DNA of 61,096 nucleotides from a virus (Duplodnaviria > Caudoviricetes): the IMG/VR virus record IMGVR_UViG_3300044633_000159, positions 1 to 61,096 of that record; one strand, written 5' to 3'. A program made the position numbers and the translations under genes. The notes beneath the pieces are model-generated. The model had not been told where the DNA came from. It saw nothing but the letters and a program-made list of their open reading frames with translations, and made no database searches. The number at the start of each line of letters is the position of its first letter. The first letter of the stretch is position 1. Positions 6,668-35,796 of this stretch are shown here, in pieces.

Positions 6668-6668
6668 A

Positions 6669-10320: not shown

Positions 10321-10352
10321 TTACTTGATTTAATTGTTACTAATTATAGATA

Positions 10353-11668: not shown

Positions 11669-11669
11669 A

Positions 11670-12236: not shown

Positions 12237-12273
12237 ATATTTGATTTAATTGTTTAATACTTATATCTATATA

Positions 12274-12297
12274 ATTACACGTTTTATCCAATATTTA
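12274..12297 (-). promoter_or_regulatory. Class II phage promoter TAAATA-N11-GTGTAAT
   Basis: Same bipartite motif and spacing as five other intergenic sites. Confidence 0.6.
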
Positions 12298-12316
12298 GGA
12301 CAAATTTCAATATAAC

Positions 12317-13096
12317 TTAAAGATAGTCAATCACTTGCGAAGTGTCTACGTTTTCTATCAACTTGTTTATAGCTAACTTTTTTAATTCAGATATTCTAAC
12401 ATAAGAACTAGGACCTTTAAATCCTAATATACCAGAAATCTGATTAGCAGAGTGTTTGTCGCAATCTAATCCAAAACTAAGTCTTAACACTTCAGATTCT
12501 ATAAACGTTAAATGCTTTTTAAATAAACTAAATAAATAAGCGTTAAGTATATCTATATTATATTCTTTAGACTTGTCTTCGTATTGAGTTTCTCTGTGCT
12601 CTTCGTCTATTCCATTAGAGTCTGTATTTTCTTCAAAACCCTCGTCCATACTTTTAAATATACTGTTAAAGAACATCTCAACTATATATTTATCTTCAGG
12701 ATTTCTACGCATCTCGTTTAATTTATGTTCCGGAATACGTATAGAACCTCTATTAATGTCTATCGCGCGCCGTATCGAACCCTTTATCCGTTTAGACAGA
12801 AACGATTTAATCGTCTGTTCTTGGTCCTTAGATTCATTTATTTTGTCCCACTCTATTCTGTCAATAGCAAATATTAAACCTATACTACCTTCTTGAATTA
12901 TATCGGTTATATCCATAATACCTGACGCTTGATCAGCTGTAGAAAACTTTTTAGCTATATTTTCTACTAAAGGTAAAAACGTAGCTATTAGATCGTCTCT
13001 GGATAATTGATTGTAATCTTTTTTGTCGATGTTGCTTATAGTCTTTTTAAGGTCAGACTTATAACGCAAATAATTTTCTAGGTTATACTTTTTCAT
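12317..13096 (-). CDS. Phage-encoded sigma70-family RNA polymerase sigma factor
   Basis: Region 2 (LPLVENIAKKF..DIIQEGSIGL..AIDR), IRIPEHK, region 4 (EVLRLSFGL..VRISELKKLAINKL). Confidence 0.85.
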   Translation of the reverse strand: MKKYNLENYLRYKSDLKKTISNIDKKDYNQLSRDDLIATFLPLVENIAKKFSTADQASGIMDITDIIQEGSIGLIFAIDRIEWDKINESKDQEQTIKSFLSKRIKGSIRRAIDINRGSIRIPEHKLNEMRRNPEDKYIVEMFFNSIFKSMDEGFEENTDSNGIDEEHRETQYEDKSKEYNIDILNAYLFSLFKKHLTFIESEVLRLSFGLDCDKHSANQISGILGFKGPSSYVRISELKKLAINKLIENVDTSQVIDYL

Positions 13097-13403
13097 TTAA
13101 CTTTTTTATTATGTCTTGTTTTATTTTCTCGTGAACTTCTAATGCATCTTCATAAGAAGTATGTCTAAATTGTACGCATTGATCGAATTCTACAAAGTTA
13201 CAACTAAAAGTCATTGTTTCCCATAATATAGGGTTTTTACCGTCATGAGAATGATCTAAACCAAGAAATACTGTAGATAGATAAACATCTTTTATATATT
13301 CTTGTTTTACAGCTTTTTTATCTGGATTCTTTTCAATCCACTCACAATATTCTGATCCAGTAACAGCAACAGGTTTGTTGTCTTCATCTAATTTGTACCA
13401 CAT
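13083..13403 (-). CDS. hypothetical phage protein
   Basis: STVFLGLDH..LWETM motif recurrent in phage hypothetical proteins. Confidence 0.65.
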   Translation of the reverse strand: MWYKLDEDNKPVAVTGSEYCEWIEKNPDKKAVKQEYIKDVYLSTVFLGLDHSHDGKNPILWETMTFSCNFVEFDQCVQFRHTSYEDALEVHEKIKQDIIKKLNEKV

Positions 13404-14017
13404 AGTTCTTGATTTAATAATTCTTTTTCTTTTTTAAGTTCTTTGCCGATGTTTCTGTATATTGTTCTAGGAGAACAACAGAGATATTTCGCTAGTTTTT
13501 CAACAGTAATTTTATCGCCATCGTCGTGAGTGTATAGCATGGCATCGTAGATCTCTGACTCTGATAATTTTTTACGACCGATAATTTGACCTACGATTTG
13601 TAGTTTCTGTTCTGTACTTAACATACAATTGTCTTTAAATATTATCTTACGTAACTTATTCTTAGGAGGAGATTCTAAGTCTGCCATGCTAACCTCATAA
13701 ATAATAGTTTTTAAAACATGCTCTGATATTGTAAATGTAACAAAATTATTTGAAGTATCACAGATAAATCTACATAAAGATTCTAAATTGTCTTGATCTA
13801 ACTTAGGGTTAAGATACCATATAACCAACAGATGCCATTTTAAACTTTTATAAGTATTTATTTTAGCTTTGCTTCTAAATAACTCGTAGCATTCATACGT
13901 TCCGTCTTGGTAATAATAACCCCAGTCATATATATCCGTTGGTTTATCATTAACTGGAAACCTTCGGTATATTATTCTTTTATCGATCAAGTATTTAATA
14001 TTTCTATCATGTGACAT
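13388..14017 (-). CDS. DNA-binding protein with C-terminal helix-turn-helix; possible origin/operator-binding protein
   Basis: KITVEKLAKYLCCSPRTIYRNI HTH; start codon lies inside a 46-bp inverted-repeat site. Confidence 0.65.
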   Translation of the reverse strand: MSHDRNIKYLIDKRIIYRRFPVNDKPTDIYDWGYYYQDGTYECYELFRSKAKINTYKSLKWHLLVIWYLNPKLDQDNLESLCRFICDTSNNFVTFTISEHVLKTIIYEVSMADLESPPKNKLRKIIFKDNCMLSTEQKLQIVGQIIGRKKLSESEIYDAMLYTHDDGDKITVEKLAKYLCCSPRTIYRNIGKELKKEKELLNQELCGTN

Positions 14018-14055
14018 TAGCCCCTTATTATTTATATATACACCCTATTGTCACA
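14010..14055. promoter_or_regulatory. Inverted-repeat site A: TGTGACATTAG-N24-CTATTGTCACA
   Basis: Same arms recur at 22119-22165 and 24544-24590. Confidence 0.75.
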
Positions 14056-14170
14056 GTATATATCATTATTAATATATTCTTCACTACAAATCATTTCATC
14101 ATACTCTGTTTCGTTTTTTATTTTTTCAAATAATTCTCTGTTTAACCCCATACTTAAAAGGCTATTTACA

Positions 14171-14446
14171 TTAAATTTCGGAAATCCTAGATTTTAAATA
14201 CTCTATACGCTCGGAACATGCCGATGCTTTTTCGTATTCTTCAGTCTTTTCGTAAGCATCTATCATTATCCGTAGCTTAGTTATTTCCATTATCATCTTG
14301 TCTTTTTCGCTGACTCGCTCGTGGACTTCGATAGGTACATTGCTAGCTTCTAGATCTCTAATAAATTCTTTGTCAAGTTGTTTCTGCTTTTCCATAAGTT
14401 TACCCACAATAACATCGGCTAATTCATCCATTTCTTTTTTTGTCAT
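14171..14446 (-). CDS. hypothetical protein with UVR-like C-terminal motif
   Basis: EEYEKASACSERI pattern; first gene after a class I promoter. Confidence 0.6.
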   Translation of the reverse strand: MTKKEMDELADVIVGKLMEKQKQLDKEFIRDLEASNVPIEVHERVSEKDKMIMEITKLRIMIDAYEKTEEYEKASACSERIEYLKSRISEI

Positions 14447-14463
14447 ATATAATTATTTTAAAT

Positions 14464-14494
14464 ATTATCCGTTCTGTAAACTTTTAAGTCCGTG
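14464..14494 (-). promoter_or_regulatory. Class I phage promoter CACGGACT-N17-GATAAT
   Basis: Exact bipartite motif, one of 8 copies. Confidence 0.8.
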
Positions 14495-14731
14495 TAGTGA
14501 TTCGATATTCCGTTTGTTGCTACTATATAACCTATTGCCTTTGCAGTAATCGCAACTACCGTGGTTTCTACATTGTTTATCAAATCTTCTAGACTTTCTA
14601 TAAGCTTGTTTAACTGTTCTACTCATAAAACTATTTCTTTAAGTTCTATCATCTTTAATATTAAGAATACGCCAATTACAAGCGCGCAGTATAATATATA
14701 AAGCATTAATGAAAATGCATTTTTTTTCATA

Positions 14732-14983
14732 CTAATCTAATAAAGTCATATAAGCTTTAGGACTGTTGTCTTTGAACCACCATAGACCATCATAGAACCG
14801 TTTAGATAAACTGTTATCGCCGCTTGTGCCAGATAATATCATCTCTGCACCTTTTATAAAGTCGTACATGCTTAATTCTTCGCCTGTTAAAACACACGTT
14901 TCACCACTGTAAGGATTTGTTACTTCGCATCCTTGAGTGTAAATTTCTCCGTCAAACCATTCTGGTAATAATTTTTTACTCAT
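14732..14983 (-). CDS. hypothetical protein
   Basis: ORF in early gene cluster. Confidence 0.7.
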   Translation of the reverse strand: MSKKLLPEWFDGEIYTQGCEVTNPYSGETCVLTGEELSMYDFIKGAEMILSGTSGDNSLSKRFYDGLWWFKDNSPKAYMTLLD

Positions 14984-15233
14984 GATCTTGTTTATATTTG
15001 TTAATTAAATCTTTTAAGCCTTTCTTTTTTTCTTCATTAAAAACATCATATAATCCTAACTTCTCATCTTCTTGCATAATATCTATTAAATGTTGTTTAG
15101 TGTCTTCGTATATCTCTAATAGTTCGTATTCTAAATACGTTTCATCATACTTACTTTTAGCGTAAAGTATTTCTTGTTTGTAGTTTCTATTCCTATAAGG
15201 GTAATATTCATCTAGCCATTTCTTGAATGTCAT
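14976..15233 (-). CDS. hypothetical protein
   Basis: ORF coupled to neighbours. Confidence 0.65.
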   Translation of the reverse strand: MTFKKWLDEYYPYRNRNYKQEILYAKSKYDETYLEYELLEIYEDTKQHLIDIMQEDEKLGLYDVFNEEKKKGLKDLINKYKQDHE

Positions 15234-15556
15234 AAGTTTATCTGTATTTTACGTGTTTCGCAACTCATCTTGTGTATAGCACTCGTCTGTCCACAGCTAC
15301 TGCAATAATCATCTTGCGTACACTTTGGATAGTTGCATTGTTCTAAATTACATATCTCACCTTCGCGCTTAACGCCATTGTGTTTGCACTTGTTTGAGTC
15401 TTTACCGTTAGGCCAAAAGTATGAACAACTTGTTTCATCATCTTCAGGACTAAAGTTAGCATAGGATTGCCAAAAATCATTAGGAGTAACTGTAAACCTA
15501 TGGCAATAATCTTTTGAGGGGCAATGTAGGTTTCTACACATTGAAATATCTGGCAT
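15230..15556 (-). CDS. Cys-rich hypothetical protein
   Basis: MPDISMC....CP....C.RF N-terminus and several further Cys residues. Confidence 0.7.
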   Translation of the reverse strand: MPDISMCRNLHCPSKDYCHRFTVTPNDFWQSYANFSPEDDETSCSYFWPNGKDSNKCKHNGVKREGEICNLEQCNYPKCTQDDYCSSCGQTSAIHKMSCETRKIQINL

Positions 15557-15558
15557 AA

Positions 15559-15762
15559 TTATAGTTCTTTTAAAATGTTACCGTTATTATCTAACCAACC
15601 ACCTTCTATAAAAGCATTTGCTGCTCGACCATAATGGTCTTGTAATGACCATGCTACATTAGTTTTAACCATATCAGAAAACAGTTCTATTATTTCTTTA
15701 TCATTAAGCATGCCATATTCAAATTGCATTATTTGATCTACAAAGTCTTTAGTTCTTTTCAT
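15559..15762 (-). CDS. hypothetical protein
   Basis: AWSLQ.HYGR.A motif seen in phage hypothetical proteins. Confidence 0.7.
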   Translation of the reverse strand: MKRTKDFVDQIMQFEYGMLNDKEIIELFSDMVKTNVAWSLQDHYGRAANAFIEGGWLDNNGNILKEL

Positions 15763-15765
15763 TAA

Positions 15766-15972
15766 TTATCTATTTTTTTCTATTAAAGTAAATAAATACA
15801 TGTAAATTAATTTTTCTTCCTCAGTTTGTTCTATAACACCCTGTAATTGCTCTGCGTCTATACCACCTGTATTATCATACTTTAAGTTTTCACGCAATCT
15901 TTGTAATTCAAAGTTTAATGTAGTTAATTTAGCGTAAACCTTGTCAAACGCTTTTTCTTTTATATCTTGCAT
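15766..15972 (-). CDS. hypothetical protein
   Basis: ORF in early cluster. Confidence 0.6.
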   Translation of the reverse strand: MQDIKEKAFDKVYAKLTTLNFELQRLRENLKYDNTGGIDAEQLQGVIEQTEEEKLIYMYLFTLIEKNR

Positions 15973-15988
15973 GTTATGTTAGTTATTA

Positions 15989-16213
15989 TTAAGTTATAAC
16001 TTTTATAAAATTACCTTGTTGGTCACAAATCAAAGTTAAATCATACTCATGATCTAAAAAATCCATAATACTAATTATAGACATCATAAGATGTTGAGCG
16101 CTAGCATTAAAGTCATGTACACTACCAGTAAAACCTTTAGATATAACATAGTCATATATAAATACCCAATCTACAACTCTGTCATTCCTCATTTTAATAT
16201 ATCTTTCCTTCAT
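15989..16213 (-). CDS. hypothetical protein
   Basis: ORF in early cluster. Confidence 0.6.
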   Translation of the reverse strand: MKERYIKMRNDRVVDWVFIYDYVISKGFTGSVHDFNASAQHLMMSIISIMDFLDHEYDLTLICDQQGNFIKVIT

Positions 16214-16227
16214 AATATACAGTTGTT

Positions 16228-16258
16228 AAAAAGACCCACCTTTCACAGTGGGCCCTTT
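16228..16258 (-). terminator. Intrinsic terminator after the VWA gene
   Basis: AAAGGCCCAC-loop-GTGGGTCTTTT on the minus strand. Confidence 0.65.
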
Positions 16259-16268
16259 AAATTCTTTA

Positions 16269-17696
16269 CTAATTAGATTTTTTACTTTTTTTACCTTCGT
16301 CAACTACGACTTTACCTTCTTCTGAATAAGAGGTTACAGAACTATCATAGGATACTTGAACTTGTTTACCACCGGTTTTAACACATAAGTCTTTTAACTC
16401 AGTACTAAACTGCATTAAAGATACTGCATTAACCTTGTATGGTAAACTATCATAACCTACTCTATCTTCACCATCGTTAATAATTAAGATTTCAGGTTTT
16501 TCTACTGACAGATCTATGTCTAAGTTATGTAGTCTTTGCTTAGATATTTCTTGTGATATATGAGTAACTATGCCACCTATATCGGTAGTACCACCGTTTG
16601 GATTATTAGAAAACCATTTCCAGAAATCCATTACGTCTTCTCTGTTTTTAAGATGATGAAAATTCAAATGTTCAGACCTATATACAAAGTAACTGAAGAA
16701 CACTTCGGCTTCTTCCTTCATAACATACCGCAAACGGTCGATGAGTATAGCATTAACCCATATCTGTTTCTCAGGGTCATCCATACTGCCAGAAAAATCT
16801 AATAATATAATTATTTTCTGCTTTTGTTCTTTACGGTCAACAGGTACATTAACAGTTAAGTCTTTAGTTAAGAACTTAGTACGAAAGTTTGGAAACATTT
16901 TTTGGTATAACTCGATCTGACTAAACTGAGCATAGTCACGCATAATCTTTTTAGCATACTGATCAGAGTTGGATACAAGTTTTTCATCAACTTCTTTTTC
17001 AACCTTGAACTGATCGCCAAGTTTACCGACAATAGATATTTTATCTAGTATATCCATTTTACGCTGTTTACTTAACTCGTTAAAGTCAAGTTGTTCGTTT
17101 ATACTAGGATCAGAATAGGTTGCTCTATCAAAGTCTAAGGTTGTTTCATACTGTAGATCACCTTCTTCTTTTAATTTACCGTCTTGATAAACAGGAGCAC
17201 CACTTATTTGCTTGAATATAGCTATCGCTTGTTCTAACGGAGTATTACCTGGTATAAACTTTTCGAATATAGAGTCATACAAAGATTTTTTAGCTTCATA
17301 GTCTTGCTGTTGACTATCGGAAAGAGAATCAAAGTCTGAGAATTTTTCACTAATATATTCTTTTTCATCTATCATCTTGAAGTAACATACTCTAGCTAAG
17401 TCTTTAATAGTATCTATGGATTTTTCATTCCATACATTAGACTTTATTTTAATATCTGCTTTTGTAGGCGTTAAGTAAGTTACTGGATCTTTAACGAATA
17501 AATCTGAGTTATCATCTTCATCATAAGCGCCAGACCAAGAGTAGTTAGTCCATACACTCGGTTGCCAAGAGTATGAACTATATCTACTTTTACTTTTACT
17601 TTTACCACCATAACCATAACCATAACTTCCGTAGTTGTCATACTCAGACACATACTCGTCTTCGTCACCCCAATAAGAATTTTTAAATCTGCTCAT
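16269..17696 (-). CDS. VWA (MIDAS) domain protein, ViaA-like partner of MoxR ATPase
   Basis: LLDFSGSM, NGGTTD, IINDGED; directly downstream of the AAA+ gene. Confidence 0.8.
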   Translation of the reverse strand: MSRFKNSYWGDEDEYVSEYDNYGSYGYGYGGKSKSKSRYSSYSWQPSVWTNYSWSGAYDEDDNSDLFVKDPVTYLTPTKADIKIKSNVWNEKSIDTIKDLARVCYFKMIDEKEYISEKFSDFDSLSDSQQQDYEAKKSLYDSIFEKFIPGNTPLEQAIAIFKQISGAPVYQDGKLKEEGDLQYETTLDFDRATYSDPSINEQLDFNELSKQRKMDILDKISIVGKLGDQFKVEKEVDEKLVSNSDQYAKKIMRDYAQFSQIELYQKMFPNFRTKFLTKDLTVNVPVDRKEQKQKIIILLDFSGSMDDPEKQIWVNAILIDRLRYVMKEEAEVFFSYFVYRSEHLNFHHLKNREDVMDFWKWFSNNPNGGTTDIGGIVTHISQEISKQRLHNLDIDLSVEKPEILIINDGEDRVGYDSLPYKVNAVSLMQFSTELKDLCVKTGGKQVQVSYDSSVTSYSEEGKVVVDEGKKSKKSN

Positions 17697-17714
17697 GTTA
17701 GTTTGTTTTAAGGA

Positions 17715-18746
17715 TTAATCCATTATTGAAGATACAACTTGCTTTTTAGATAACGTAGTATACAACTCTGTAGCAGACTTGATTAAAGACGCATGATTTG
17801 TAGCTAAATCGTCTGACACTGTTAATTTCTTAATATCTCTAATAGCATTAGCCAATAAACCGATGTCATTAGTATATTTAGATTTTTCTTCACCAGTAAT
17901 TAAGTTATTAGCTTGCAACTCGTTAACAATAGCACCTAAGTCATCAGATAATTTTCTGAACTTTAATGTACTTTGATATTTCTTAAGAGTCTCAGCGATT
18001 AATGCAGGTTTTTTAGAGAACTCAGCGATAAAGTTTAATGAGTCTGGACCACATTCTTCGTATACTGTATAAGCAGTAACTGCAACCCTTGGAGATATAG
18101 TAATACCACCACGATGATATTCTTGAAGTAGATAAGGTATAATAGGATCTACATTGCCTTCGCCAAACTTAGTTTCTAACAACTTGTTATAACTAGCTTC
18201 AGTATAATTATCCCATACGACATTTAATTCTAACGGAAAACGCTCCATTAACGCTTTTAAAGATGCATTCTTAGAGAATTCTTCACGAGTTCTATTAGTA
18301 CAACAGATAATAAACTTTGTTTTAATAGGAAAGATCTGCGTACCGTTTCTGAATATCTTAGAAGATAATATATCTTTTAATTGCTCGAGGATAAAGTCTG
18401 GAGCATCGAATAATTCTTCAAAAATAACATACTCATGATTCATAAATGAATTCTCAACAAGGTATTCGATTTTACCTGTTTTCTCGAACGTAGGTATATC
18501 TAAACCGCCGAATAGTCTGTCAGTGGTCATACCTGTACCCATTGTAATAACGTAAGGATTAATGCCTTTTTCAGCAAGATACGCCATTGTTAATTCTGAT
18601 TTACCATGTCCACCAGGACCGTACAAGACGATGTTTTTACCTGTCTTCAACCCAATATCTAAGATATTAAGTGATTTGTCCATGAATACGAAGTCTGCGC
18701 CTACGCCAGATACTTCTACCGCTGTTGATTTTTTAGCTTTCGCCAT
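17715..18746 (-). CDS. MoxR/RavA-like AAA+ ATPase
   Basis: Walker A GPGGHGKS, Walker B IFEE, RLFGG, CTN, ALMERF. Confidence 0.82.
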   Translation of the reverse strand: MAKAKKSTAVEVSGVGADFVFMDKSLNILDIGLKTGKNIVLYGPGGHGKSELTMAYLAEKGINPYVITMGTGMTTDRLFGGLDIPTFEKTGKIEYLVENSFMNHEYVIFEELFDAPDFILEQLKDILSSKIFRNGTQIFPIKTKFIICCTNRTREEFSKNASLKALMERFPLELNVVWDNYTEASYNKLLETKFGEGNVDPIIPYLLQEYHRGGITISPRVAVTAYTVYEECGPDSLNFIAEFSKKPALIAETLKKYQSTLKFRKLSDDLGAIVNELQANNLITGEEKSKYTNDIGLLANAIRDIKKLTVSDDLATNHASLIKSATELYTTLSKKQVVSSIMD

Positions 18747-18796
18747 AATTAAAATGTATTAAAGGGTTTAATAAGGTTACCACTATGGTAACTTCG

Positions 18797-18860
18797 TGAT
18801 TAAGAAGGACTCGAACCTTCAACTCAGTCTATGTCCCTGAGTCATCGCCTGATTTAATCG
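18797..18860 (-). ncRNA. Minimal tRNA-like RNA with reduced D-arm and CAU at the loop centre
   Basis: Acceptor GATTAA/TTAATC, canonical T-arm GAAGG-TTCGAGT-CCTTC, stem CTCAG/CTGAG. Confidence 0.55.
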
Positions 18861-18892
18861 ACCAACACGCCTTATCGAGCGTGTATAGCAAG

Positions 18893-19081
18893 CTATTTAC
18901 GTCGCCACGCTTTATGTACTTTAGCACTAAGCTCTTGACTAACTATTTGAATTGTATTACCTGTTTTATGCTCAATAATAGGTATATAACTATAGGTTTT
19001 TGTAGTAGAACATTCTACACAACTTTTATATCCTAGACCTAGTCTTACTGGATGCAACTCATTACCACATCTACAATACAT
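18893..19081 (-). CDS. Small C4 zinc-finger protein (DksA/TraR-like finger)
   Basis: CxC..L...RL......CVEC. Confidence 0.55.
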   Translation of the reverse strand: MYCRCGNELHPVRLGLGYKSCVECSTTKTYSYIPIIEHKTGNTIQIVSQELSAKVHKAWRRK

Positions 19082-19090
19082 ACTAATTAT

Positions 19091-19318
19091 TTAAGGTTTA
19101 ACAAACTCGAACTCGTAATTATATTCTGCTAAATTAATATCAGACTCTCTTGTTTCCATTTGAGCATCGATAGCAATATTGAATATTGAATTTCTAATAA
19201 ACTGAGCAACTATCTGTCTCTCAGGAAATGTACACTTAACTAATGGTTTGCCATTGTAAGTCCAGTAGCCGTTTTTTACTTTGATTTTTGCTTGCATGTT
19301 GTTAATTTTTTCGTTCAC
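19091..19318 (-). CDS. hypothetical protein
   Basis: ORF after class I promoter; true start is probably the ATG near 19297. Confidence 0.6.
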   Translation of the reverse strand: MNEKINNMQAKIKVKNGYWTYNGKPLVKCTFPERQIVAQFIRNSIFNIAIDAQMETRESDINLAEYNYEFEFVKP

Positions 19319-19322
19319 GTAT

Positions 19323-19353
19323 ATTATCCTACTAAAATATTATATAGTCCGTG
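19323..19353 (-). promoter_or_regulatory. Class I phage promoter
   Basis: CACGGACT-N17-GATAAT. Confidence 0.8.
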
Positions 19354-19503
19354 CAGATTAACAAGCACAGTATATGTAATAACTACTAAGATAACAACTA
19401 CTAATAATACTATTGATTCTCTGTTTTCTTTCACTGTATTTAATATTTAGTGTCCACAGTAGGAATCGAACCTACGACCTGATGATTATGTAGCTCAAAT
19501 GGT

Positions 19504-19527
19504 TAAAATAGTTTATTTATGTGTAAT
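19504..19527 (+). promoter_or_regulatory. Class II promoter upstream of the HNH gene
   Basis: TAAAAT-N11-GTGTAAT. Confidence 0.6.
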
Positions 19528-19558
19528 AATATAACTATATAACTAAACGAATTGAAAA

Positions 19559-20104
19559 ATGGAAAAAGAAAAACTACAAGAACAAATATTATTGTCTAAG
19601 TCATCTAGAGAAATAGCTAAACATTTTGATGTTAGCCAAAGCACTATAAGATATTGGACAAAAAAATACCAATTAAGTATGCTGTTTAATAGCGAATATA
19701 ATGGTTTAAAGTGTAGAGTTTGTAACTCTTCATTAGTAAATATGCAGAAAGTTTACTGTTCAAATAACTGCAAAGTAAAAGGTCATTATATTAATTCTAA
19801 AAACAATACTAATTCTGTATATAGTCAAGAAAGTAGAGGTATAGAGCGTAAAAAACACTTTATGAACATACTAGGTGGTAAATGCAATTCTTGCGGTTAT
19901 AATAAGAATATTACCGCGTTAGAATTCCACCATGTAGATCCAACTACTAAAAAACTACAACTAAACATGAGAACTTTTTCCAATAATTCAATGAACGTTT
20001 TAATTGAAGAGGTTTACAAGTGTGAATTACTATGTGCTAATTGCCATAGAGAACACCATAATCCTCGTTTTAACTACTTTATTCAATCTGCTCTAACCGA
20101 CTGA
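19559..20104 (+). CDS. HNH endonuclease with N-terminal HTH and zinc fingers (homing-type mobile gene)
   Basis: SSREIAKHFDVSQSTIRYW HTH; CRVC..YCS..C; GGKC..CGY....ALEFHH..P...C.LLCANCHREHH; the only convincing + strand gene in the leftward arm. Confidence 0.88.
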   Translation: MEKEKLQEQILLSKSSREIAKHFDVSQSTIRYWTKKYQLSMLFNSEYNGLKCRVCNSSLVNMQKVYCSNNCKVKGHYINSKNNTNSVYSQESRGIERKKHFMNILGGKCNSCGYNKNITALEFHHVDPTTKKLQLNMRTFSNNSMNVLIEEVYKCELLCANCHREHHNPRFNYFIQSALTD

Positions 20105-20154
20105 GCTATGTGGACTACCGAGATTACCTAGCGCTACGTGTATAGCACTACGCT

Positions 20155-20646
20155 CTACCTATCCATAAGCGATTGTAATTTTTTTAACATCGGTAATAAT
20201 TCGCTGAACATCTCGGCACGCTTTTGTTGCTCATCAAGTGTTTTCTGCGTAGGCATCTCACGTGCTTTGATCCATTTACCATTTTTAAATACCTTTATAT
20301 TTCTATAATAAAAGTCTCCGTTAGGTAATAACTCATGATCTTCATTGGTAACGATCTGACCATACTTAGTCCAGACACCTAGAGCAAAACCTCGACGCTC
20401 AGCTTCTTTGGTCATCTCTAATACCTTGCAACAATCACTACTTGCTGGTACAGTTATAGATGGTTGTTTACCATTATCTATATCCATCCAGAATACGTGA
20501 CCTTGATTGGTTAAATTCCAAGGAAATGCTGATTTAAGGTCGATATCCATATCGATACACTTTCCTAGTTCTTCTTGATTTCTAAATCTTAAGAACTCTT
20601 CTACAAATAATTCTTTCTGTACTCTTGTTAACTTGCTAATTTTCAT
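20155..20646 (-). CDS. hypothetical protein
   Basis: AF.W..T.QGH.FW motif seen in phage hypothetical proteins. Confidence 0.7.
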   Translation of the reverse strand: MKISKLTRVQKELFVEEFLRFRNQEELGKCIDMDIDLKSAFPWNLTNQGHVFWMDIDNGKQPSITVPASSDCCKVLEMTKEAERRGFALGVWTKYGQIVTNEDHELLPNGDFYYRNIKVFKNGKWIKAREMPTQKTLDEQQKRAEMFSELLPMLKKLQSLMDR

Positions 20647-20648
20647 GC

Positions 20649-20900
20649 TTATTTAATATTAATGGTTAATGACTGAAATCCTTGTTCTGTACTTACATGC
20701 TTGTGATTCCACAATCGAGTGCAAGCGAACTTCTTACTCTTACTAAACGTAGACTTTTGTCTAGTTGGTAACCTAAACCATTCAGAGTTCGTTAGTCCGC
20801 TGCATCTTCTCTCTTGTGAGTTTAAACGCCTATGCTCGTTTATTCTATCTCTTTTTAAATTCTTAATATACTCGTGGGCAATTACTGCTGCTGCTTCCAT
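20649..20900 (-). CDS. hypothetical protein
   Basis: ORF in early cluster. Confidence 0.55.
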   Translation of the reverse strand: MEAAAVIAHEYIKNLKRDRINEHRRLNSQERRCSGLTNSEWFRLPTRQKSTFSKSKKFACTRLWNHKHVSTEQGFQSLTINIK

Positions 20901-20902
20901 AG

Positions 20903-21061
20903 TTATATATATGTTATTTCTAAATTTAACTTCTCTGTGGTCATGTAACTCGTGGTGTCTAAACCATAGTGTTTATCTACATATTCTTCGATATTTGTAC
21001 CTGTTGGTACTTCGACTATGTTTACTTTACCTTCTGAGTAATCTAATATAGTTATATACAT
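20903..21061 (-). CDS. small hypothetical protein (52 aa, below ORF-track cutoff)
   Basis: Manually translated MYITILDYSEGKVNIVEVPTG...; abuts neighbours. Confidence 0.5.
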   Translation of the reverse strand: MYITILDYSEGKVNIVEVPTGTNIEEYVDKHYGLDTTSYMTTEKLNLEITYI

Positions 21062-21184
21062 ACTTAACTTCTTAATGCCGCTCCCGCTGCGTTAGACAAT
21101 TCTCTAAAATTCACTTGTAATTTACTAGCTAACCTAAAGGTTATTAAACTTACTAGTCTTCTGTATTTTCTCATTATATTTAAA

Positions 21185-21361
21185 CTATTGGTTATAAACT
21201 TGATTTACTAAGTCCTCTAATAATACACTACGATCGTAGCCGGATTTCCAGCTACAATCAGTGTATATATACTCAGACATTTCTCTAATCACTTGATCTC
21301 TTTCGCCATATTCAGCGAACGCTTTGAAATGCTCTATGGTACTATCTTTAAATTGACTCAT
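21185..21361 (-). CDS. small hypothetical protein (58 aa, below ORF-track cutoff)
   Basis: Manually translated MSQFKDSTIEHFKAFAEY...; starts 1 nt after the upstream stop. Confidence 0.55.
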   Translation of the reverse strand: MSQFKDSTIEHFKAFAEYGERDQVIREMSEYIYTDCSWKSGYDRSVLLEDLVNQVYNQ

Positions 21362-21362
21362 G

Positions 21363-21560
21363 TTAGTTTAAATCAGATTTTCTAATGAAAGTCCAACCTT
21401 TGTGGTTAAACCATGAAGTTACGCCATCTCGCTCATTCTCGGCATCGTAGATGAAGGCAAATTTAGCTGGGAGGTTACCAATTAGGAAACCAGTGTATTC
21501 GACTTTGTTAAGCCAAATAGTAGACTCGCGTCTTTTGAAAGTTTTAACTGTTGTAGTCAT
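21363..21560 (-). CDS. hypothetical early protein
   Basis: First gene after class I promoter. Confidence 0.7.
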   Translation of the reverse strand: MTTTVKTFKRRESTIWLNKVEYTGFLIGNLPAKFAFIYDAENERDGVTSWFNHKGWTFIRKSDLN

Positions 21561-21607
21561 AGGTAATAAAGGTATTAAAGTTTAATTATTAAATTATTTC
21601 CACGTAT

Positions 21608-21638
21608 ATTATCTTACTAAAATAATATATAGTCCGTG
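21608..21638 (-). promoter_or_regulatory. Class I phage promoter
   Basis: CACGGACT-N17-GATAAT. Confidence 0.8.
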
Positions 21639-21645
21639 TGGTTGA

Positions 21646-21909
21646 TTATTGCTTCGGTATGGTAAATATAGTTGAATAGAAATCTTCTTCTTCTTCATAC
21701 TCATCATAGTTATCAGGGTATAACTCAGATAGTTCCTCGTAAGTGGGGTCATTAAAAGTATCGAAGGTATGGTGTATACTCACGGTAATAACTTCTATCT
21801 CGTTACCATCCTCGTCTTCTGTAAATCCTTCTTCTATATCGAAGGTTATTACTCCGTTAATTTTCTCGATAATACTTGATAATTCTGGAAATTCTGGAAA
21901 TTCTTGCAT
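21646..21909 (-). CDS. Highly acidic small early protein
   Basis: 26 Asp/Glu versus 2 Lys and no Arg in 87 aa. Confidence 0.7.
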   Translation of the reverse strand: MQEFPEFPELSSIIEKINGVITFDIEEGFTEDEDGNEIEVITVSIHHTFDTFNDPTYEELSELYPDNYDEYEEEEDFYSTIFTIPKQ

Positions 21910-22029
21910 AAGTAAAAGGTGTTAATTTATTTGTTAGTTTTAAAGTTCCTTGAGGGTGTATTACCACGCTTCATCCTGACTATTAACTAGTTAAGACTCG
22001 AAAGGTGTTAATAATTAACCCTCGAATAT

Positions 22030-22060
22030 ATTATCTTACTAAAATTTTAACAAGTCCGTG
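22030..22060 (-). promoter_or_regulatory. Class I phage promoter
   Basis: CACGGACT-N17-GATAAT with TGCTATACAC just upstream. Confidence 0.8.
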
Positions 22061-22118
22061 CGGTGTATAGCAGTAACTTGCTGCTTTAATGGCACACCAA
22101 ACCACCAATCTGGAAAAG

Positions 22119-22165
22119 TGTGACATTAGGGTATTAAGTAAGAAGAGTAACAGGCTATTGTCACA
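22119..22165. promoter_or_regulatory. Inverted-repeat site B: TGTGACATTAG-N25-CTATTGTCACA
   Basis: Matches sites at 14010 and 24544. Confidence 0.75.
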
Positions 22166-22376
22166 GTTTTTTATCTCCATACTTGCAGTAAAATAACTTA
22201 TCTATTGACTCGTAGTTGACTCCATACTCAGTAACTATGGCTTGGAATACACTATCCACCCATTGCCACTCACTATCTAGTGACTCGTCACCACAATCCG
22301 CATAAAAGTTGATCGCTTGACCATGTTTGGTGATTATTATCCACCCTTCTTGTAATACTATTCTACCGTATTCCAT
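22161..22376 (-). CDS. hypothetical early protein
   Basis: 71-aa ORF whose stop codon lies in inverted-repeat site B. Confidence 0.6.
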   Translation of the reverse strand: MEYGRIVLQEGWIIITKHGQAINFYADCGDESLDSEWQWVDSVFQAIVTEYGVNYESIDKLFYCKYGDKKL

Positions 22377-22395
22377 GTTTTTAAAATTAAAGTTT

Positions 22396-22421
22396 AAAAA
22401 AAAGCCGCCCGAAGGCGACTT
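22396..22421 (-). terminator. Intrinsic terminator after paralog 1
   Basis: AAGTCGCC-TTCG-GGCGGCTT-TTTTTT. Confidence 0.85.
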
Positions 22422-22431
22422 ATTTGACTAA

Positions 22432-22728
22432 TTATACTAATTCTGGTAACGCTCTAACGAAAGCGGGAAGATTGTTAGTATTGGTATAACTCCCGTACTT
22501 CTCGAAGCATGGCATGAGGTCGAATTTCGCTTTTAAAGCGTTATATACCTTATCATGGTCGTAGGTACATAGTACGTTTTTAGCGTTGGTAAAGGAAATA
22601 ACTGTGTTAGTTCCTATTAATGACTTGCGAATAACAAAGCGCTTAGTTGTAATAGCGTTTTTAGTTGTTACTACTGCTACAGGAGCTGCCACTGGCGCTA
22701 CGACTGTATTGGTTTTTACTTTGGACAT
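22432..22728 (-). CDS. Paralog 1 of four-copy early protein family (98 aa, start MSKVK)
   Basis: TTKRFVIRKSLIGTNTVISFTN..YDHDKVY..MPCF.KYGSYTNTNNLPAFVR core; start reassigned downstream of the promoter. Confidence 0.85.
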   Translation of the reverse strand: MSKVKTNTVVAPVAAPVAVVTTKNAITTKRFVIRKSLIGTNTVISFTNAKNVLCTYDHDKVYNALKAKFDLMPCFEKYGSYTNTNNLPAFVRALPELV

Positions 22729-22774
22729 AGGTAATAAATTATGGTTATGAAGTCGAATATCGAACTTCATATAT

Positions 22775-22805
22775 ATTATCTCACTATAATAATTGTAAGT
22801 CCGTG
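22775..22805 (-). promoter_or_regulatory. Class I promoter of paralog 1
   Basis: CACGGACT-N17-GATAAT. Confidence 0.8.
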
Positions 22806-22885
22806 TAGTGTATAGCACTTCACACTAAATAGATCGTTAGCGATTGAACACACCTCCGCCTGTCCATTCCGCTAATAAGCAGAGT

Positions 22886-22910
22886 AAAAAACCCTCTTTC
22901 GAGGGTCTTT
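22886..22910 (-). terminator. Intrinsic terminator after paralog 2
   Basis: AAAGACCCTC-GAAA-GAGGGTTTTTT. Confidence 0.85.
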
Positions 22911-22922
22911 ATTTACCTTATA

Positions 22923-23207
22923 TTATACTAACTCTGGTAATGCTCTAACAAAAGCAGGTAAGTTATTGGTATTGGTATAACTACCATACTTTTCAAAGCA
23001 AGGCATGAGGTCAAACTTAGCTTTTAACTGGTGATAAACCTTGTCATGGTCATAAGTGCATAACTCATTCTTGTTGTTGGTAAAGCTAATTACTGTGTTA
23101 GTTCCTATTAGACTCTTTCTAATAACAAACCTTTTAGTAGTTAGTGCATTCTTGGTTACTACAGGAGCTACTGGTGCTACGACTGTGTTAGTTTTTACTT
23201 TTGACAT
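22923..23207 (-). CDS. Paralog 2 of four-copy early protein family
   Basis: Same conserved core. Confidence 0.85.
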   Translation of the reverse strand: MSKVKTNTVVAPVAPVVTKNALTTKRFVIRKSLIGTNTVISFTNNKNELCTYDHDKVYHQLKAKFDLMPCFEKYGSYTNTNNLPAFVRALPELV

Positions 23208-23252
23208 AGTAATAAATATTAAGTTACTGAGCTCATTATTAAGCTCGTATAT

Positions 23253-23283
23253 ATTATCTTGCTAAAAATCCTGTAAGTCCGTG
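23253..23283 (-). promoter_or_regulatory. Class I promoter of paralog 2
   Basis: CACGGACT-N17-GATAAT. Confidence 0.8.
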
Positions 23284-23369
23284 TAGTGTATAGCATAATG
23301 CACTATGATAAAGACTGTAAATGACAATTAAAGTCGGCTCTGCCTGTCCATTCCACCGATAGGTAGAAG

Positions 23370-23394
23370 AAAAAACCCTCTTTCGAGGGTCTTT
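23370..23394 (-). terminator. Intrinsic terminator after paralog 3
   Basis: AAAGACCCTC-GAAA-GAGGGTTTTTT, identical to 22886-22910. Confidence 0.85.
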
Positions 23395-23406
23395 AGTTGA
23401 TTACTG

Positions 23407-23643
23407 TTATACTAACTCTTTAAGTGATCTAACGAACGCTGGTAGGTTATTAGTGTTAGTGTAACTACCATACTTATTAAAACAAGGCATAGAATCAAAC
23501 TTGTCTTTTAGTTGGTTGTAGACTTTGTCATGATCATAAGTCATTAACTCATTCTTGTTGTTGGTAAAACTGATAACAGTGTTTGTACCAATTAAACTTT
23601 TTCTGATCACAAATCTTTTTGTAGTAATAGTGTTTACTGACAT
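23407..23643 (-). CDS. Paralog 3 of four-copy early protein family (78 aa, start MSVNT)
   Basis: Same conserved core; start reassigned by comparison with the other copies. Confidence 0.85.
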   Translation of the reverse strand: MSVNTITTKRFVIRKSLIGTNTVISFTNNKNELMTYDHDKVYNQLKDKFDSMPCFNKYGSYTNTNNLPAFVRSLKELV

Positions 23644-23689
23644 AGTATAAAATATTAAGTTATGGAATCCATTATTAAATTCCATATAT

Positions 23690-23720
23690 ATTATCTGACT
23701 ATAAAACTCGTAAGTCCGTG
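23690..23720 (-). promoter_or_regulatory. Class I promoter of paralog 3
   Basis: CACGGACT-N17-GATAAT. Confidence 0.8.
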
Positions 23721-23743
23721 CGTGTATAGCATCGGAAGGATAT

Positions 23744-23769
23744 AAAAAAAGACCACCGAAGTGGCCTTT
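23744..23769 (-). terminator. Intrinsic terminator closing the paralog 4 unit
   Basis: AAAGGCCAC-TTCG-GTGGTCTTTTTTT. Confidence 0.85.
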
Positions 23770-23773
23770 AAAA

Positions 23774-23875
23774 CTATATACTTATCAAACTACGTATAAC
23801 AAAGTATAACGCTGCATAGATGATAAAGAATATCTGAAGTCTCGCTTGACTAAAGAATCTGAGTATGTATTTCAT
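23774..23875 (-). CDS. Possible 33-aa hydrophobic peptide
   Basis: MKYILRFFSQARLQIFFIIYAALYFVIRSLISI between paralog 4 and its terminator. Confidence 0.4.
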   Translation of the reverse strand: MKYILRFFSQARLQIFFIIYAALYFVIRSLISI

Positions 23876-23933
23876 ATTAAGATATATTAGATTAATAAAT
23901 AAAGCAGTTTAATGACTTGCTTAGGTCGGTTGA

Positions 23934-24191
23934 TTAAACTATCTCTTTCAATGCTCTAACGAACGCTGGGAGATTGTTTGTGTTCGTGTATGAACCATAC
24001 TTAGCGAAGCATGGCATTGCATCGAACTTGTCTTTGAGCTGCTCATAGACTTTGTCGTGATTGTAAGTGCATACGACTTGCTTTGCATTTGTGAATGAGA
24101 TCACTGTGTTAGTACCGATCAGAGACTTTCTGATAACGAATCTTTTAGTAGTAATTTCTACTGTTGCTGGTAATGTGTTTAATTTAGACAT
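23934..24191 (-). CDS. Paralog 4 of four-copy early protein family
   Basis: Same conserved core. Confidence 0.85.
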   Translation of the reverse strand: MSKLNTLPATVEITTKRFVIRKSLIGTNTVISFTNAKQVVCTYNHDKVYEQLKDKFDAMPCFAKYGSYTNTNNLPAFVRALKEIV

Positions 24192-24232
24192 AATAAATTT
24201 ATTTAATTATAAGCTTAATTGCTTACATATAT

Positions 24233-24263
24233 ATTATCCAATATAAATTCTTGTAAGTCCGTG
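24233..24263 (-). promoter_or_regulatory. Class I promoter of paralog 4, plus an orphan CACGGACT at 24292-24299
   Basis: CACGGACT-N17-GATAAT. Confidence 0.8.
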
Positions 24264-24445
24264 TGTTATAAAATATATATATAAAGTAGTAAGTCCGTGT
24301 GTATAGCAAAGGTAAAAAGCTAAAACAAAGCAGCGCATCGATCCGATTCGACTGACGATGAAAACCAAAACATAAACACAAAGGGGAACCCGGCAAAACA
24401 AAACGCGTTTTCCTTTTGGAAACGAAAATAGAAAATGGGGTAGTA

Positions 24446-24493
24446 ACCCATCAAATCTCTATATCTCACACCCATCAAATCTCCACATCTCAT
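24446..24493. repeat. Tandem 2 x 24 bp direct repeat in the divergent non-coding region
   Basis: ACCCATCAAATCTCTATATCTCAC / ACCCATCAAATCTCCACATCTCAT, 21 of 24 identical. Confidence 0.8.
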
Positions 24494-24543
24494 ATTCAAA
24501 TATGAAATACGAAAAAATTTTTTACAATATTTTTTTTTAAAAG

Positions 24544-24590
24544 TATGACAATAGGGTATTAGAATAAAGGAGTAAGGGGCTAATGTCACA
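24544..24590. promoter_or_regulatory. Inverted-repeat site C: TATGACAATAG-N25-CTAATGTCACA
   Basis: Matches sites A and B. Confidence 0.75.
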
Positions 24591-24603
24591 GTATGCCTAT
24601 GTG

Positions 24604-24627
24604 TAAAAATCACTACTTCCGTGTAAT
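24604..24627 (+). promoter_or_regulatory. Class II promoter at the head of the structural arm
   Basis: TAAAAA-N11-GTGTAAT. Confidence 0.65.
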
Positions 24628-24655
24628 AGTATACATATGATTAAATATTACTATT

Positions 24656-34251: not shown

Positions 34252-35796
34252 ATGTCAGACGCTATAGTCAAAAATTTAAGTTTCGGTAAAGACGCGAGTG
34301 ATAAAGTATTTGCCGGTATAGAGAAGTTATCAAAAGCAGTAAGTTCTACACTAGGAGCAAGTGGCAAATGTGTTCTACTTGAAGATTCAACAGGTAGACC
34401 TGTCATTACCAAAGATGGTGTAACCGTTGCTGATTCAATTATATTGTTAGATCCTGTAGAAAATATGGGAGCAACTTTATTAAAAGAAGCAGCGCGAAAA
34501 ACTGTTAGAGAAGCAGGTGATGGTACAACTACAGCCACTGTGTTAGCACACGCTATATTAAAGAATGCTTATAAAGTAGAAAACCCAGATACTAGAAAGA
34601 TTAAAGAAGGTATTAACAAAGCTGTTGACAACGTTGTTAAATATCTTGAAGATATGGCAGTTTTAGTTGATGATAATATGTTAGATCACATCGCTACTAT
34701 ATCTACAAACAATGATCCTGAATTAGGTAAGTTAGTTGGTAATGCTTTTAGAGCGGTAGGTAATACTGGTATTGTAATGATGGAAACATCTTCCGATGCT
34801 GAATGTAGTTTACAATTAGTTGAAGGAGTGCAATGCTCAATGGGTTTAACAAACTCACATTTTATAACTAATCATAAGAATAAGACAGCAGAACTAGATA
34901 ATCCTTTAGTTTTATTAGTTGAGTCACCAATAGAGAACGTCCGTCAACTACAAAAGATATTAGAGTATGTTATAAAGAACAATAGATCTTTATTAATTGT
35001 TGGTGATATGGAACAGATAGTATTATCTACATTAGCAATGAATAAGTCTAAAGGTAATATAAAAATCAATGTTATAAATGCACCAACTTATGGTATTAAT
35101 AGAAAAGAGATATTTGATGATCTTGCTTTATTAACTGGTGCAACTTTAATAAACGAAGATCTTGGTGATGATTTAGATTTGATAGATCCGTCAATGCTTG
35201 GCGTTTGTTTTAAAAGTATAACAAACCACGAAGAAACAATACTCCACGTTGGAGAACCAAATGAAGAAGTTTTAGATATAATTACTGATATTAAGAAATC
35301 ATTATCAGAAAACAATAATAGCGCTACTATTATAAAACTAGAAAAAAGATTAGCTAGGTTAACAGCAAAAATATCTGTAGTTAAAGTTGGCGCTAATTCA
35401 GAAATAGAGTTAAAAGAAAAGTCGGATAGAATTGAAGACGCTATTTGTGCTACAAAAGCCGCTATTAAAGAAGGTATCGTCCCAGGTGGAGGAATAGCTT
35501 TATTAAACGCTTCATATAATATAGATACTTTTTCTATTGGTGAAGAAATATTATTAGATTCTATTAGATCACCATTTAATACAATATTAAGTAATGCTGG
35601 AATAGAAGTTATGTCAGAAAAGATTGTAACAGGTATTGGTTATGGTTTAAATGTTATAACTGGAGAAACAGTAGATATGATTAAAGCAGGTATTATTGAT
35701 CCACTACTTGTTACAAAGAGTGCTTTGAAAAATGCTGCGTCTGTTGCTACAACGATACTTTCAACTGATTGTGTAATTAATAACTTGAGAGCATAA
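34252..35796 (+). CDS. groEL: Phage chaperonin GroEL
   Basis: ITKDGVTVA, AGDGTTTATVLA, EGIVPGGG, GIIDP; lacks the C-terminal GGM tail. Confidence 0.95.
   Translation: MSDAIVKNLSFGKDASDKVFAGIEKLSKAVSSTLGASGKCVLLEDSTGRPVITKDGVTVADSIILLDPVENMGATLLKEAARKTVREAGDGTTTATVLAHAILKNAYKVENPDTRKIKEGINKAVDNVVKYLEDMAVLVDDNMLDHIATISTNNDPELGKLVGNAFRAVGNTGIVMMETSSDAECSLQLVEGVQCSMGLTNSHFITNHKNKTAELDNPLVLLVESPIENVRQLQKILEYVIKNNRSLLIVGDMEQIVLSTLAMNKSKGNIKINVINAPTYGINRKEIFDDLALLTGATLINEDLGDDLDLIDPSMLGVCFKSITNHEETILHVGEPNEEVLDIITDIKKSLSENNNSATIIKLEKRLARLTAKISVVKVGANSEIELKEKSDRIEDAICATKAAIKEGIVPGGGIALLNASYNIDTFSIGEEILLDSIRSPFNTILSNAGIEVMSEKIVTGIGYGLNVITGETVDMIKAGIIDPLLVTKSALKNAASVATTILSTDCVINNLRA

Follow-up and report, generated by a model that had tools for sequence, protein, structure and literature searches.

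The phi29 p6 protein and SPO1 TF1 are small, abundant early proteins, each encoded by a single gene, that coat DNA and act stoichiometrically. Gene 0.3 of T7 (Ocr), transcribed first and from strong promoters, codes for an anti-restriction protein that is a strongly acidic DNA mimic. Among poxviruses, the K3L gene accordions are recent tandem amplifications of an early gene, with near-identical copies. To our knowledge, very few takeover or anti-defence proteins are known in Bacteroidota. One account (PMC10531801) describes the host-takeover module of the Bacillus phage SPO1 as a cluster of small early genes, some of whose products bind DNA or RNA, and mentions TF1. Here we describe a locus in the IMG/VR virus record IMGVR_UViG_3300044633_000159, a sequence of 61,096 bp (G+C 33%, estimated completeness 95%) that was analyzed whole and is called the window below. 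Four tandem stand-alone cassettes at 22396-24308, all on the minus strand, were confirmed as the initial annotation had proposed them. Their proteins share a 75-amino-acid basic alpha/beta domain that we call X. The explanation that we favor, with a rough probability of 0.4 on the basis of sequences and structure models, is that X derives from a nuclease but binds nucleic acid without catalysis, and that it is produced in large quantity from where the leftward arm of the genome begins.

The gene content of the window is that of a tailed phage. A minus-strand arm (ca. 3.3-24.2 kb) carries ribonucleotide reductase, primase-helicase, thymidylate synthase, MazG, an ERF recombinase with an exonuclease, a sigma factor and a MoxR-type ATPase, and a plus-strand arm (24.7 kb to the end) carries a tail fiber, GroEL, terminase, portal and virion proteins. 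The array sits mid-record, next to a divergent intergenic region of 347 bp. The 87 GenBank phage records matched by the large terminase were phages of Flavobacterium (68), Cellulophaga (15), Tenacibaculum (2) and Maribacter (1) plus one uncultured phage; the closest was MW202828.1 (64.5% identity), and Flavobacterium phage elemoA reached 45.6%. Since the matches are mainly to Flavobacterium and Cellulophaga phages, the host is most likely a member of the Flavobacteriia.

The four cassettes and their expression signals

Each cassette consists of a TGCTATACAC box, a promoter-like unit of the form CACGGACTTAC-N14-GATAATATA, a 5' stem-loop, an open reading frame (ORF) and an intrinsic terminator. 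We numbered them c1 to c4 in the order of transcription, so that the fourth copy of the initial annotation is c1 and its copy 1 is c4. Measured from box to next box or terminator, they span 577, 436, 478 and 422 bp, respectively; the length first given for them was 480 to 560 bp. The features of the array and of the adjoining region are as follows.

24309..24655 (no strand): divergent intergenic region, with the array on one side and the plus-strand virion-gene arm on the other (sequence)
24299..24308 (-): TGCTATACAC box of c1 (exact match)
24229..24299 (-): promoter-like unit of c1, with CACGGACTTAC twice (24289-24299, 24253-24263) and then GATAATATA (24230-24238)
24208..24227 (-): 5' leader stem-loop of c1 (-6.5 kcal/mol, z -2.47)
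23934..24191 (-): ORF c1, 85 amino acids (AlphaFold2 model, predicted local distance difference test [pLDDT] 88.5)
23748..23769 (-): intrinsic terminator of c1 (terminator scan and folding)
23687..23731 (-): c2 box (23722-23731), CACGGACTTAC (23710-23720) and GATAATATA (23687-23695), exact matches
23662..23685 (-): 5' leader stem-loop of c2 (-8.6 kcal/mol, z -3.64)
23407..23643 (-): ORF c2, 78 amino acids (start at 23643 set by orthologue alignment)
23365..23394 (-): intrinsic terminator of c2 (-13.7 kcal/mol, z -3.05)
23250..23295 (-): c3 box (23286-23295), CACGGACTTAC (23273-23283) and GATAATATA (23250-23258), exact matches
23229..23246 (-): 5' leader stem-loop of c3 (-8.5 kcal/mol, z -3.99)
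22923..23207 (-): ORF c3, 94 amino acids, a mosaic of c2-like and c4-like stretches (sequence comparison)
22883..22908 (-): intrinsic terminator of c3 (-14.2 kcal/mol, z -4.80)
22772..22817 (-): c4 box (22808-22817), CACGGACTTAC (22795-22805) and GATAATATA (22772-22780), exact matches
22747..22770 (-): 5' leader stem-loop of c4 (-8.5 kcal/mol, z -3.45)
22432..22728 (-): ORF c4, 98 amino acids, with a 20-residue Ala/Pro/Val-rich N-terminal tail (sequence)
22394..22421 (-): intrinsic terminator of c4 (-12.8 kcal/mol, z -4.39; terminator scan and folding)

In c2, an upstream ATG at 23685 falls within the leader hairpin. Between the stop codon and the terminator of c1, the sequence reads as a hydrophobic mini-ORF of 33 codons (23775-23876, minus strand), which could encode a small membrane peptide or simply reflect chance.

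Five exact copies of CACGGACTTAC are found in the window, all of them within 22795-24299 and two in the c1 unit, against 0.34 expected by chance, and GATAATATA stands 14 nt after it in all four units. Promoter units of this type number seven in the window, all on the minus strand at 19.3-24.3 kb, i.e., within the first 5 kb of the leftward arm, and four of them serve c1 to c4. The other three, of the form CACGGACT...GATAATATA, precede other small genes at 19328, 21613 and 22035 (minus strand). Behind the fifth promoter unit is an extremely acidic ORF of 87 amino acids (21646-21909, minus strand) that had no PHROG match and that is, by its composition, a candidate DNA-mimic anti-restriction protein.

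Directly after GATAATATA, each of the four leaders folds into a hairpin (-6.5 to -8.6 kcal/mol, z -2.5 to -4.0). In a comparison of 24 leaders, taken from the window and from 12 related loci, 81.8% of the cells of the named 7-pair helix were paired, versus 34 to 52% in slid registers. Five of its seven pairs were changed on both sides, and on four of five measures only 0 to 3 of 500 shuffles attained the observed values. RNAalifold returned no consensus for these 24 leaders, the c1-type rows being one column out of register, and the count on the named structure was used instead. A 5'-terminal hairpin is expected to stabilize a message against 5'-end-dependent mRNA decay. All four terminators are GC-rich tetraloop hairpins followed by U6-8 (-12.8 to -14.2 kcal/mol, z -3.1 to -5.1), two of which were also picked up by the terminator scan.

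Codon usage was also distinctive. C-ending codons made up 58 of the 109 two-fold codons of c1 to c4 (0.53; 0.73 in c1 alone), compared to 502 of 1704 (0.29) in eight long ORFs and 0.57 in a 484-amino-acid structural protein, the putative capsid. G+C content at third codon positions was 0.32 to 0.44 in the four copies and 0.16 to 0.26 in eleven long ORFs. Because no copy shares its promoter, 5' hairpin or terminator with another, four of the seven promoter units serve the array and the codon bias is capsid-like, the idea of high dosage, already raised in the initial annotation, gains indirect support, and the X genes may well be built for high expression. The signals looked for in an early takeover or anti-defence cassette, namely, its own promoter and terminator and a first-in-arm position, are both present in the sequence. 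A single freshwater-sediment metatranscriptome contained contigs of relatives (264 to 306 nt, about 88 to 95% identical) that cover c1, c2 and c4; other parts of the region were present there as well, and one contig ran upstream of the promoter, so these contigs are no proof of transcription.

The TGCTATACAC box has a wider distribution, with 13 exact copies in the window and, allowing one mismatch, 17 versus 4.6 expected. Twelve exact copies are on the minus strand (4330-24308) and one is on the plus strand at 1110; among the virion genes, beyond 24.7 kb, exact copies were absent. At least four copies fall inside ORFs (reductase, primase-helicase, ERF and a helix-turn-helix protein). Several relatives have the box inverted (TGTATAGCA) before the array copies and forward further down the arm. 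As a general function, a binding site for X is unlikely, as TGCTATACA was absent in either orientation from 18 of the 24 single-copy loci L033-L056 and was distant from the X gene in the other six. Nor did the box behave as a host Chi-like signal, with 8 to 18 copies versus 13 to 22 for the control in three Flavobacteriia genomes, i.e., no enrichment.

As for the surroundings of the array, the initial annotation had placed it beside the probable genome end; the array is mid-record, and the 5' end of the record falls within a gene that is cut. The divergent region includes two 23-nt direct repeats (24446-24492) and a palindrome (24395-24416) and could be an origin, a regulatory region or a junction of genome ends. 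The sigma factor of the phage is sigma-70-like (12317-13096, minus strand), and the ERF recombinase and the exonuclease, of the PDDEXK type, lie at 11670-12236 and 10937-11668 (both minus strand). The GroEL chaperonin gene occupies 34252-35796 (plus strand), and an HNH endonuclease gene (19559-20104, plus strand) is embedded in the early arm, running against its direction. Neither ARAGORN nor Rfam gave support to stretches near 18.9 and 20.1 kb that looked tRNA-like by eye.

Divergence, relatives and age of the copies

The proteins of c1 to c4 are 80 to 93% identical and their DNA 66 to 78%. All 58 invariant columns lie within the last 72 residues, in which 14 positions vary, so that the core is less uniform than the "almost invariant" stretch of the initial annotation. 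By the Nei-Gojobori method, the proportion of synonymous differences (pS) was 0.70 to 1.03, which is saturated, and nonsynonymous divergence (dN) was 0.086 to 0.198; the ratio of nonsynonymous to synonymous divergence was finite for two pairs only (c3/c4, 0.041; c1/c2, 0.074). The reported swap of codon families, CGC AAG TCA versus AGA AAG AGT, is real and distinguishes c4 from c3. The longest exact match between any two of the coding sequences was 9 to 24 nt.

To place these copies among their relatives, we used a pattern scan of IMG/VR, which matched 268 stretches, 54 of them encoding a relative, in 53 distinct loci. A hidden Markov model search of six-frame ORFs gave one X copy in 32 loci, two in 11 and three in 10, so that the number ranges from one to four across relatives and window. 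Seven single-copy loci from the closer clades end within ca. 700 nt downstream of the gene, which makes these counts lower bounds. Wherever there were several copies, they were in tandem on one strand. Along these lines, contigs L010, L012, L014, L016, L017, L022, L025, L035, L049 and L051 end within a few hundred bases after one X copy; assemblies thus break often at the array, for which repeats, diversity among strains or a genuine end of the DNA could account. These breaks are the one point in favor of regarding the array as an assembly artifact or a recent duplication. With DNA identities of 66 to 78%, pS of at least 0.70, exact matches of no more than 24 nt and a multi-copy arrangement that was found again in 21 independent contigs, this explanation is refuted and its probability is practically negligible.

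A FastTree phylogeny (88 rows, 76 distinct; 89 columns), in which many forks were unresolved and few strongly supported, grouped c1 with the copies that stand first in relatives, c2 with those in second place, and both c3 and c4 with those in third place. Third-position identity was 0.55 to 0.72 between positional orthologues versus 0.31 to 0.50 in most other comparisons, the exception being the mosaic c3, which attained 0.56 to 0.65 with c2-type copies. Clades that follow array position across phages indicate that the duplications are old, and together with the saturated pS and low dN they bear out the earlier suggestion of old duplicates under strong purifying selection. The signature residues and N-terminal tail of each paralogue type are kept across phages, for instance NNKNELM in c2-type copies and, in c3/c4-type copies, a long Ala/Pro/Val tail ending in PELV. 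Their differences are limited to a small set of positions and to the tails, and the conservation of these suggests that the paralogues are partly specialized.

This pattern bears on a simpler possibility, that the copies are interchangeable and are kept because more product is better. A copy number that varies from one to four among relatives and the same kind of expression signals on all copies would be expected from amplification for dosage. However, paralogue-specific residues and tails are kept across phages, and recent dosage amplifications are near-identical, which the X copies are not; dosage as the only reason is thus very unlikely.

It had also been proposed that the codon divergence serves to limit recombination or CRISPR targeting. 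At positions with the same residue, the numbers of identical codons equaled those expected from random draws on the codon usage of the phage in four of the six pairs, and were below expectation in c4/c1 (20 versus 30.7, P 0.004) and c4/c2 (19 versus 31.3, P 0.001); an unusual codon choice in c4 could be behind both low values. Saturation is therefore sufficient, with no need for adaptive avoidance of homology. In addition, c3 is c2-like at core codons 19-36 (83 to 86%) and c4-like at codons 7-24 (83 to 89%), which implies that exchange between copies has taken place. In this form, the proposal is not upheld.

Both in the window and in L034, a distant relative and the only single-copy one in which this position was mapped, no gene of the arm lies closer to the divergent intergenic region than X. 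In L034 the X gene lies opposite tail genes and is followed by homologues of two small ORFs of the window, as judged by eye from the translations.

The X family and its relatives in Flavobacteriia

The initial annotation had not recognized the family, and X does appear to be undescribed. The four copies matched no Pfam family at an E value of 1 or lower, and their best PHROGs match (E 0.008) was not significant; c1 and c3 matched nothing in NCBIfam or PADLOC. A profile search of PDB sequences gave a best E of 0.95, none of 50,697 phage records was matched by tblastn with three members of the family as queries, and the ESM Atlas gave no usable match. X was not found in MW202828.1 or elemoA, where an empty answer shows little. 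Full-text literature searches, including a term look-up in PMC7077304, gave nothing on the family. In metagenomes, X is plentiful. At least 7980 protein clusters at 90% identity were matched at E of 0.01 or lower (7980 of 8000 scored candidates), and the named matches are all "hypothetical protein". At 50% identity, the family comprises 430 clusters at E of 1e-3 or lower and 206 at 1e-10 or lower.

The AlphaFold2 model of X, a confident one (77-sequence alignment; pLDDT 88.5, predicted template modeling score [pTM] 0.75), comprises two beta-hairpins and three short helices, together with one strand and one more helix. Its weak fold matches are mostly to the PD-(D/E)xK superfamily, which has an alpha-beta-beta-beta-alpha-beta core: D212, DXO/Rai1, PvuII, RecU, Hjc, SfiI and tRNA-splicing endonuclease. 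Every one of the 77 distinct phage copies is basic, with isoelectric points (pI) of 9.2 to 10.2 and net charges of +4 to +13, and the pI exceeded 8 in 91% of 68 family representatives. A His-Asp pair and a Cys are invariant in the clade of the window and lost in several wider family members, and this favors a binding module over an enzyme. Predicting a homodimer of two X copies scored 0.02, which is no evidence either way; there is one natural X-X tandem fusion, P0130.

Some longer family representatives carry X at the C terminus. The only partner domain above the Pfam cutoff was HEPN_Swt1 (PF18731, E 2e-7) in P0268. Matches below it were DUF5677 in a fusion partner (24.5 bits versus a cutoff of 27.1) and the GreA/GreB C-terminal domain (E 1e-3 to 2.5e-3) in the N-terminal part of two membrane-anchored fusions. 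We gave no weight to motif readings of an "HNH" in P0188 and of UDG-like N-terminal domains in P0209 and P0252, for which Pfam, NCBIfam and PADLOC had no match; a PDB sequence search of P0188 and P0252 also found nothing. The PP-loop+X fusion P0264 (a metagenome protein of 135 amino acids) was discarded as a likely chimera, because its first 52 residues differ from TilS at only three positions and then diverge; TilS proteins themselves are without X. Its TilS part is nearly identical to gammaproteobacterial TilS (some of the records being labeled SAR86). P0264 probably arose by insertion into tilS or by chimeric assembly, and with it the family is seen to extend beyond the phages of Flavobacteriia.

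Distant cellular relatives came from the likely host class. A scan of prokaryotes with one genome per species matched 42 stretches and yielded three loci, all in Flavobacteriia. Robertkochia sediminum has a HEPN-X gene (7383-8228 in locus L058) back-to-back with a WYL-WCX regulator (the pair spanning L058 6207-8228), and two Flavobacterium/Flavobacteriia metagenome-assembled genomes encode a protein of 348 to 350 amino acids in which an unassigned N-terminal domain precedes X. Among 401 Flavobacteriaceae genomes, the family profile matched three, two of which carry a 136-amino-acid protein with an X-like C-terminal half. With this protein as the query, seven of the 401 matched, four copies being intact and three having stop codons. 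Neighbors of the 136-amino-acid gene include the C terminus of a type I HsdR (PF11867, 3.6e-77) and GIY-YIG, UDG-superfamily and Cas4-like genes, as well as, by eye, a type I specificity-subunit fragment and an excisionase-like gene. The HEPN-X and nuclease-fold loci (L058, L064, L065 and L071) look like undescribed small defense genes.

The 136-amino-acid protein connects X to nucleases. In hhalign, X residues 15-81 aligned to its residues 67-131 (probability 82.6%, E 9.7e-6). Its model (4-sequence alignment; pLDDT 79.4, pTM 0.68) has a helix and three strands bearing the invariant E21, D50 and Q65-x-K67, followed by the strand/helix order of X. The best structural matches in VIA-align were I-Ssp6803I (Z 6.5 over 107 residues), Hjc (6.3 and 5.9), DpnI (5.6) and PvuII (5.5), and Foldseek gave Hjc a probability of 0.99. 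These Z values are middling on the scale of the tool, and the nuclease-fold assignment follows from the uniformity of the list, nearly all PD-(D/E)xK nucleases, rather than from any single score. In X itself, the catalytic D...(D/E/Q)xK residues were not found, as the alignment begins after the Q65-x-K67 strand and there is no invariant acidic/Lys motif. X lacks this motif and also the N-terminal helix and strands with E21, D50 and Q65-x-K67, and is therefore not a nuclease. We read X, from alignment and models, as the probable non-catalytic part of a small restriction-endonuclease-fold protein, the catalytic half having been lost or never present.

A kinship with host modules suggests another role, in which free X masks a feature read by defense proteins or forms dead hetero-oligomers with them. 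The targets would be the HEPN-X proteins of Flavobacteriia and the small nuclease with an X half, and the paralogues would match different host variants. X-like modules do occur in defense-type contexts of the likely host class, anti-restriction genes, T7 gene 0.3 among them, typically lead their arm, paralogue differences are confined to a few positions and the tails, and the X-X fusion hints at two X domains acting together. However, the modules are rare in hosts (the 3 and 7 of 401 genomes above, with 3 of the 7 broken). So rare a target, set against a huge phage family, does not easily explain why X is strongly and universally conserved, and the paralogues are conserved instead of diversifying. 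Such an anti-defense competitor, although the strongest alternative to the reading that we favor, is rather unlikely. In a narrower form, X would be a catalytically dead remnant of the nuclease fold, mass-produced to blunt host nucleases that carry the same module, with the four paralogues covering host variants. The blunting could proceed by occupation of the DNA or RNA feature or through inactive mixed oligomers. We consider this form unlikely.

Alternatively, X might have no nucleic acid role and bind stoichiometrically to a conserved host machine (RNA polymerase, ribosome or replisome) as a takeover factor. Extreme protein conservation at saturated synonymous divergence would agree with this, as would the GreA/GreB-like matches in the membrane-anchored fusions, except that these are subthreshold. 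On the other hand, the kinship to a nuclease fold and the uniformly basic charge point to nucleic acid, and a single conserved target needs no four paralogues, which makes this option quite unlikely.

The bulk nucleic-acid binder that we favor overlaps with the anti-defense alternative. In it, the four cassettes are ancient tandem paralogues of the first gene in the leftward (replication/takeover) arm of a ca. 61-kb Flavobacteriia phage. Each would be a self-contained high-output unit in which a promoter-like element and a stem-loop precede an A/T-rich leader, an ORF enriched in C-ending codons and a strong terminator; if the promoter element works like a -10 box, the stem-loop would be at the 5' end of the transcript. 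X would be needed stoichiometrically, in very large amounts, as soon as the arm is transcribed; its task, in host takeover or in shielding the phage genome, would be to coat or mark DNA or RNA. The data show the cassette anatomy, the age of the copies, their purifying selection, how broad and how basic the family is, and its link to the nuclease fold and to defense islands; we infer the strong expression, the binding to nucleic acid and the timing.

Several points weigh against this reading. The case for nucleic-acid binding is indirect, drawn from sequences and models. Foldseek found no clear neighbor of X (best E 0.93 in PDB and 0.82 in BFVD), and the best Z of VIA-align against 48,161 chains was 3.2 (D212, 71 residues). 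Many small phage proteins are also basic, and the near-total conservation of ca. 58 residues would fit a protein-protein interface as well. HEPN is the single fused partner above the Pfam cutoff, the others being unassigned or read by eye, and the profile-profile link to the 136-amino-acid protein is moderate (83%), coming from an alignment of four sequences. As for the immediate-early timing suggested in the initial annotation, the promoter-like unit does not look like the Bacteroidota housekeeping promoter consensus, and the sigma factor of the phage could drive the X units later in infection.

Significance and comparison with known systems

The X family appears to be undescribed, as do its expansion into fixed paralogues and its connection with defense-island proteins. 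The family is huge in environmental data and has no name, curated profile or solved relative, nor any member in the GenBank phage records that were searched, and in one lineage of uncultured Flavobacteriia phages it has expanded to two to four fixed paralogues. Its kinship to HEPN and restriction-fold modules of the likely host class offers a handle on the conflict between phages and hosts in Bacteroidota. If X binds DNA, it would represent a new abundant viral DNA-binding fold, and if it blocks defense, a new class of inhibitor. Should it act as a dead nuclease against defense, this would be a new class of homology-based anti-defense, with X as a new sensor module of Bacteroidota defense.

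In design, the cassettes are similar to early takeover modules already known, that of SPO1 among them. The likeness lies in small early genes of unnamed family set in short, separately promoted units. The SPO1 module, in contrast, consists of 24 different genes in a terminal redundancy, whereas here one gene occurs four times, and there is no sequence relation between them. With phi29 p6 and TF1, likened here by description, X shares its small size, although its DNA binding is only inferred. Like Ocr, X is encoded by the first gene of an arm and has a plausible anti-restriction role. However, Ocr is acidic, while a DNA-mimic surface of the Ocr/ArdA type was not found in any of the 77 distinct, basic X copies (pI 9.2 to 10.2), and the nearby ORF 21646-21909 is more Ocr-like by composition.

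Among nucleases, the comparison is with Hjc, I-Ssp6803I and PvuII, since X aligns to the C-terminal half of the related 136-amino-acid protein and its own weak fold matches are in the same superfamily. X differs in being without the part that bears E21, D50 and Q65-x-K67 in the 136-amino-acid proteins. Finally, the K3L accordions are alike in being tandem amplifications of an early gene where dosage matters, but they are recent, whereas the X copies are old, have diverged from each other and have become fixed throughout a phage lineage.

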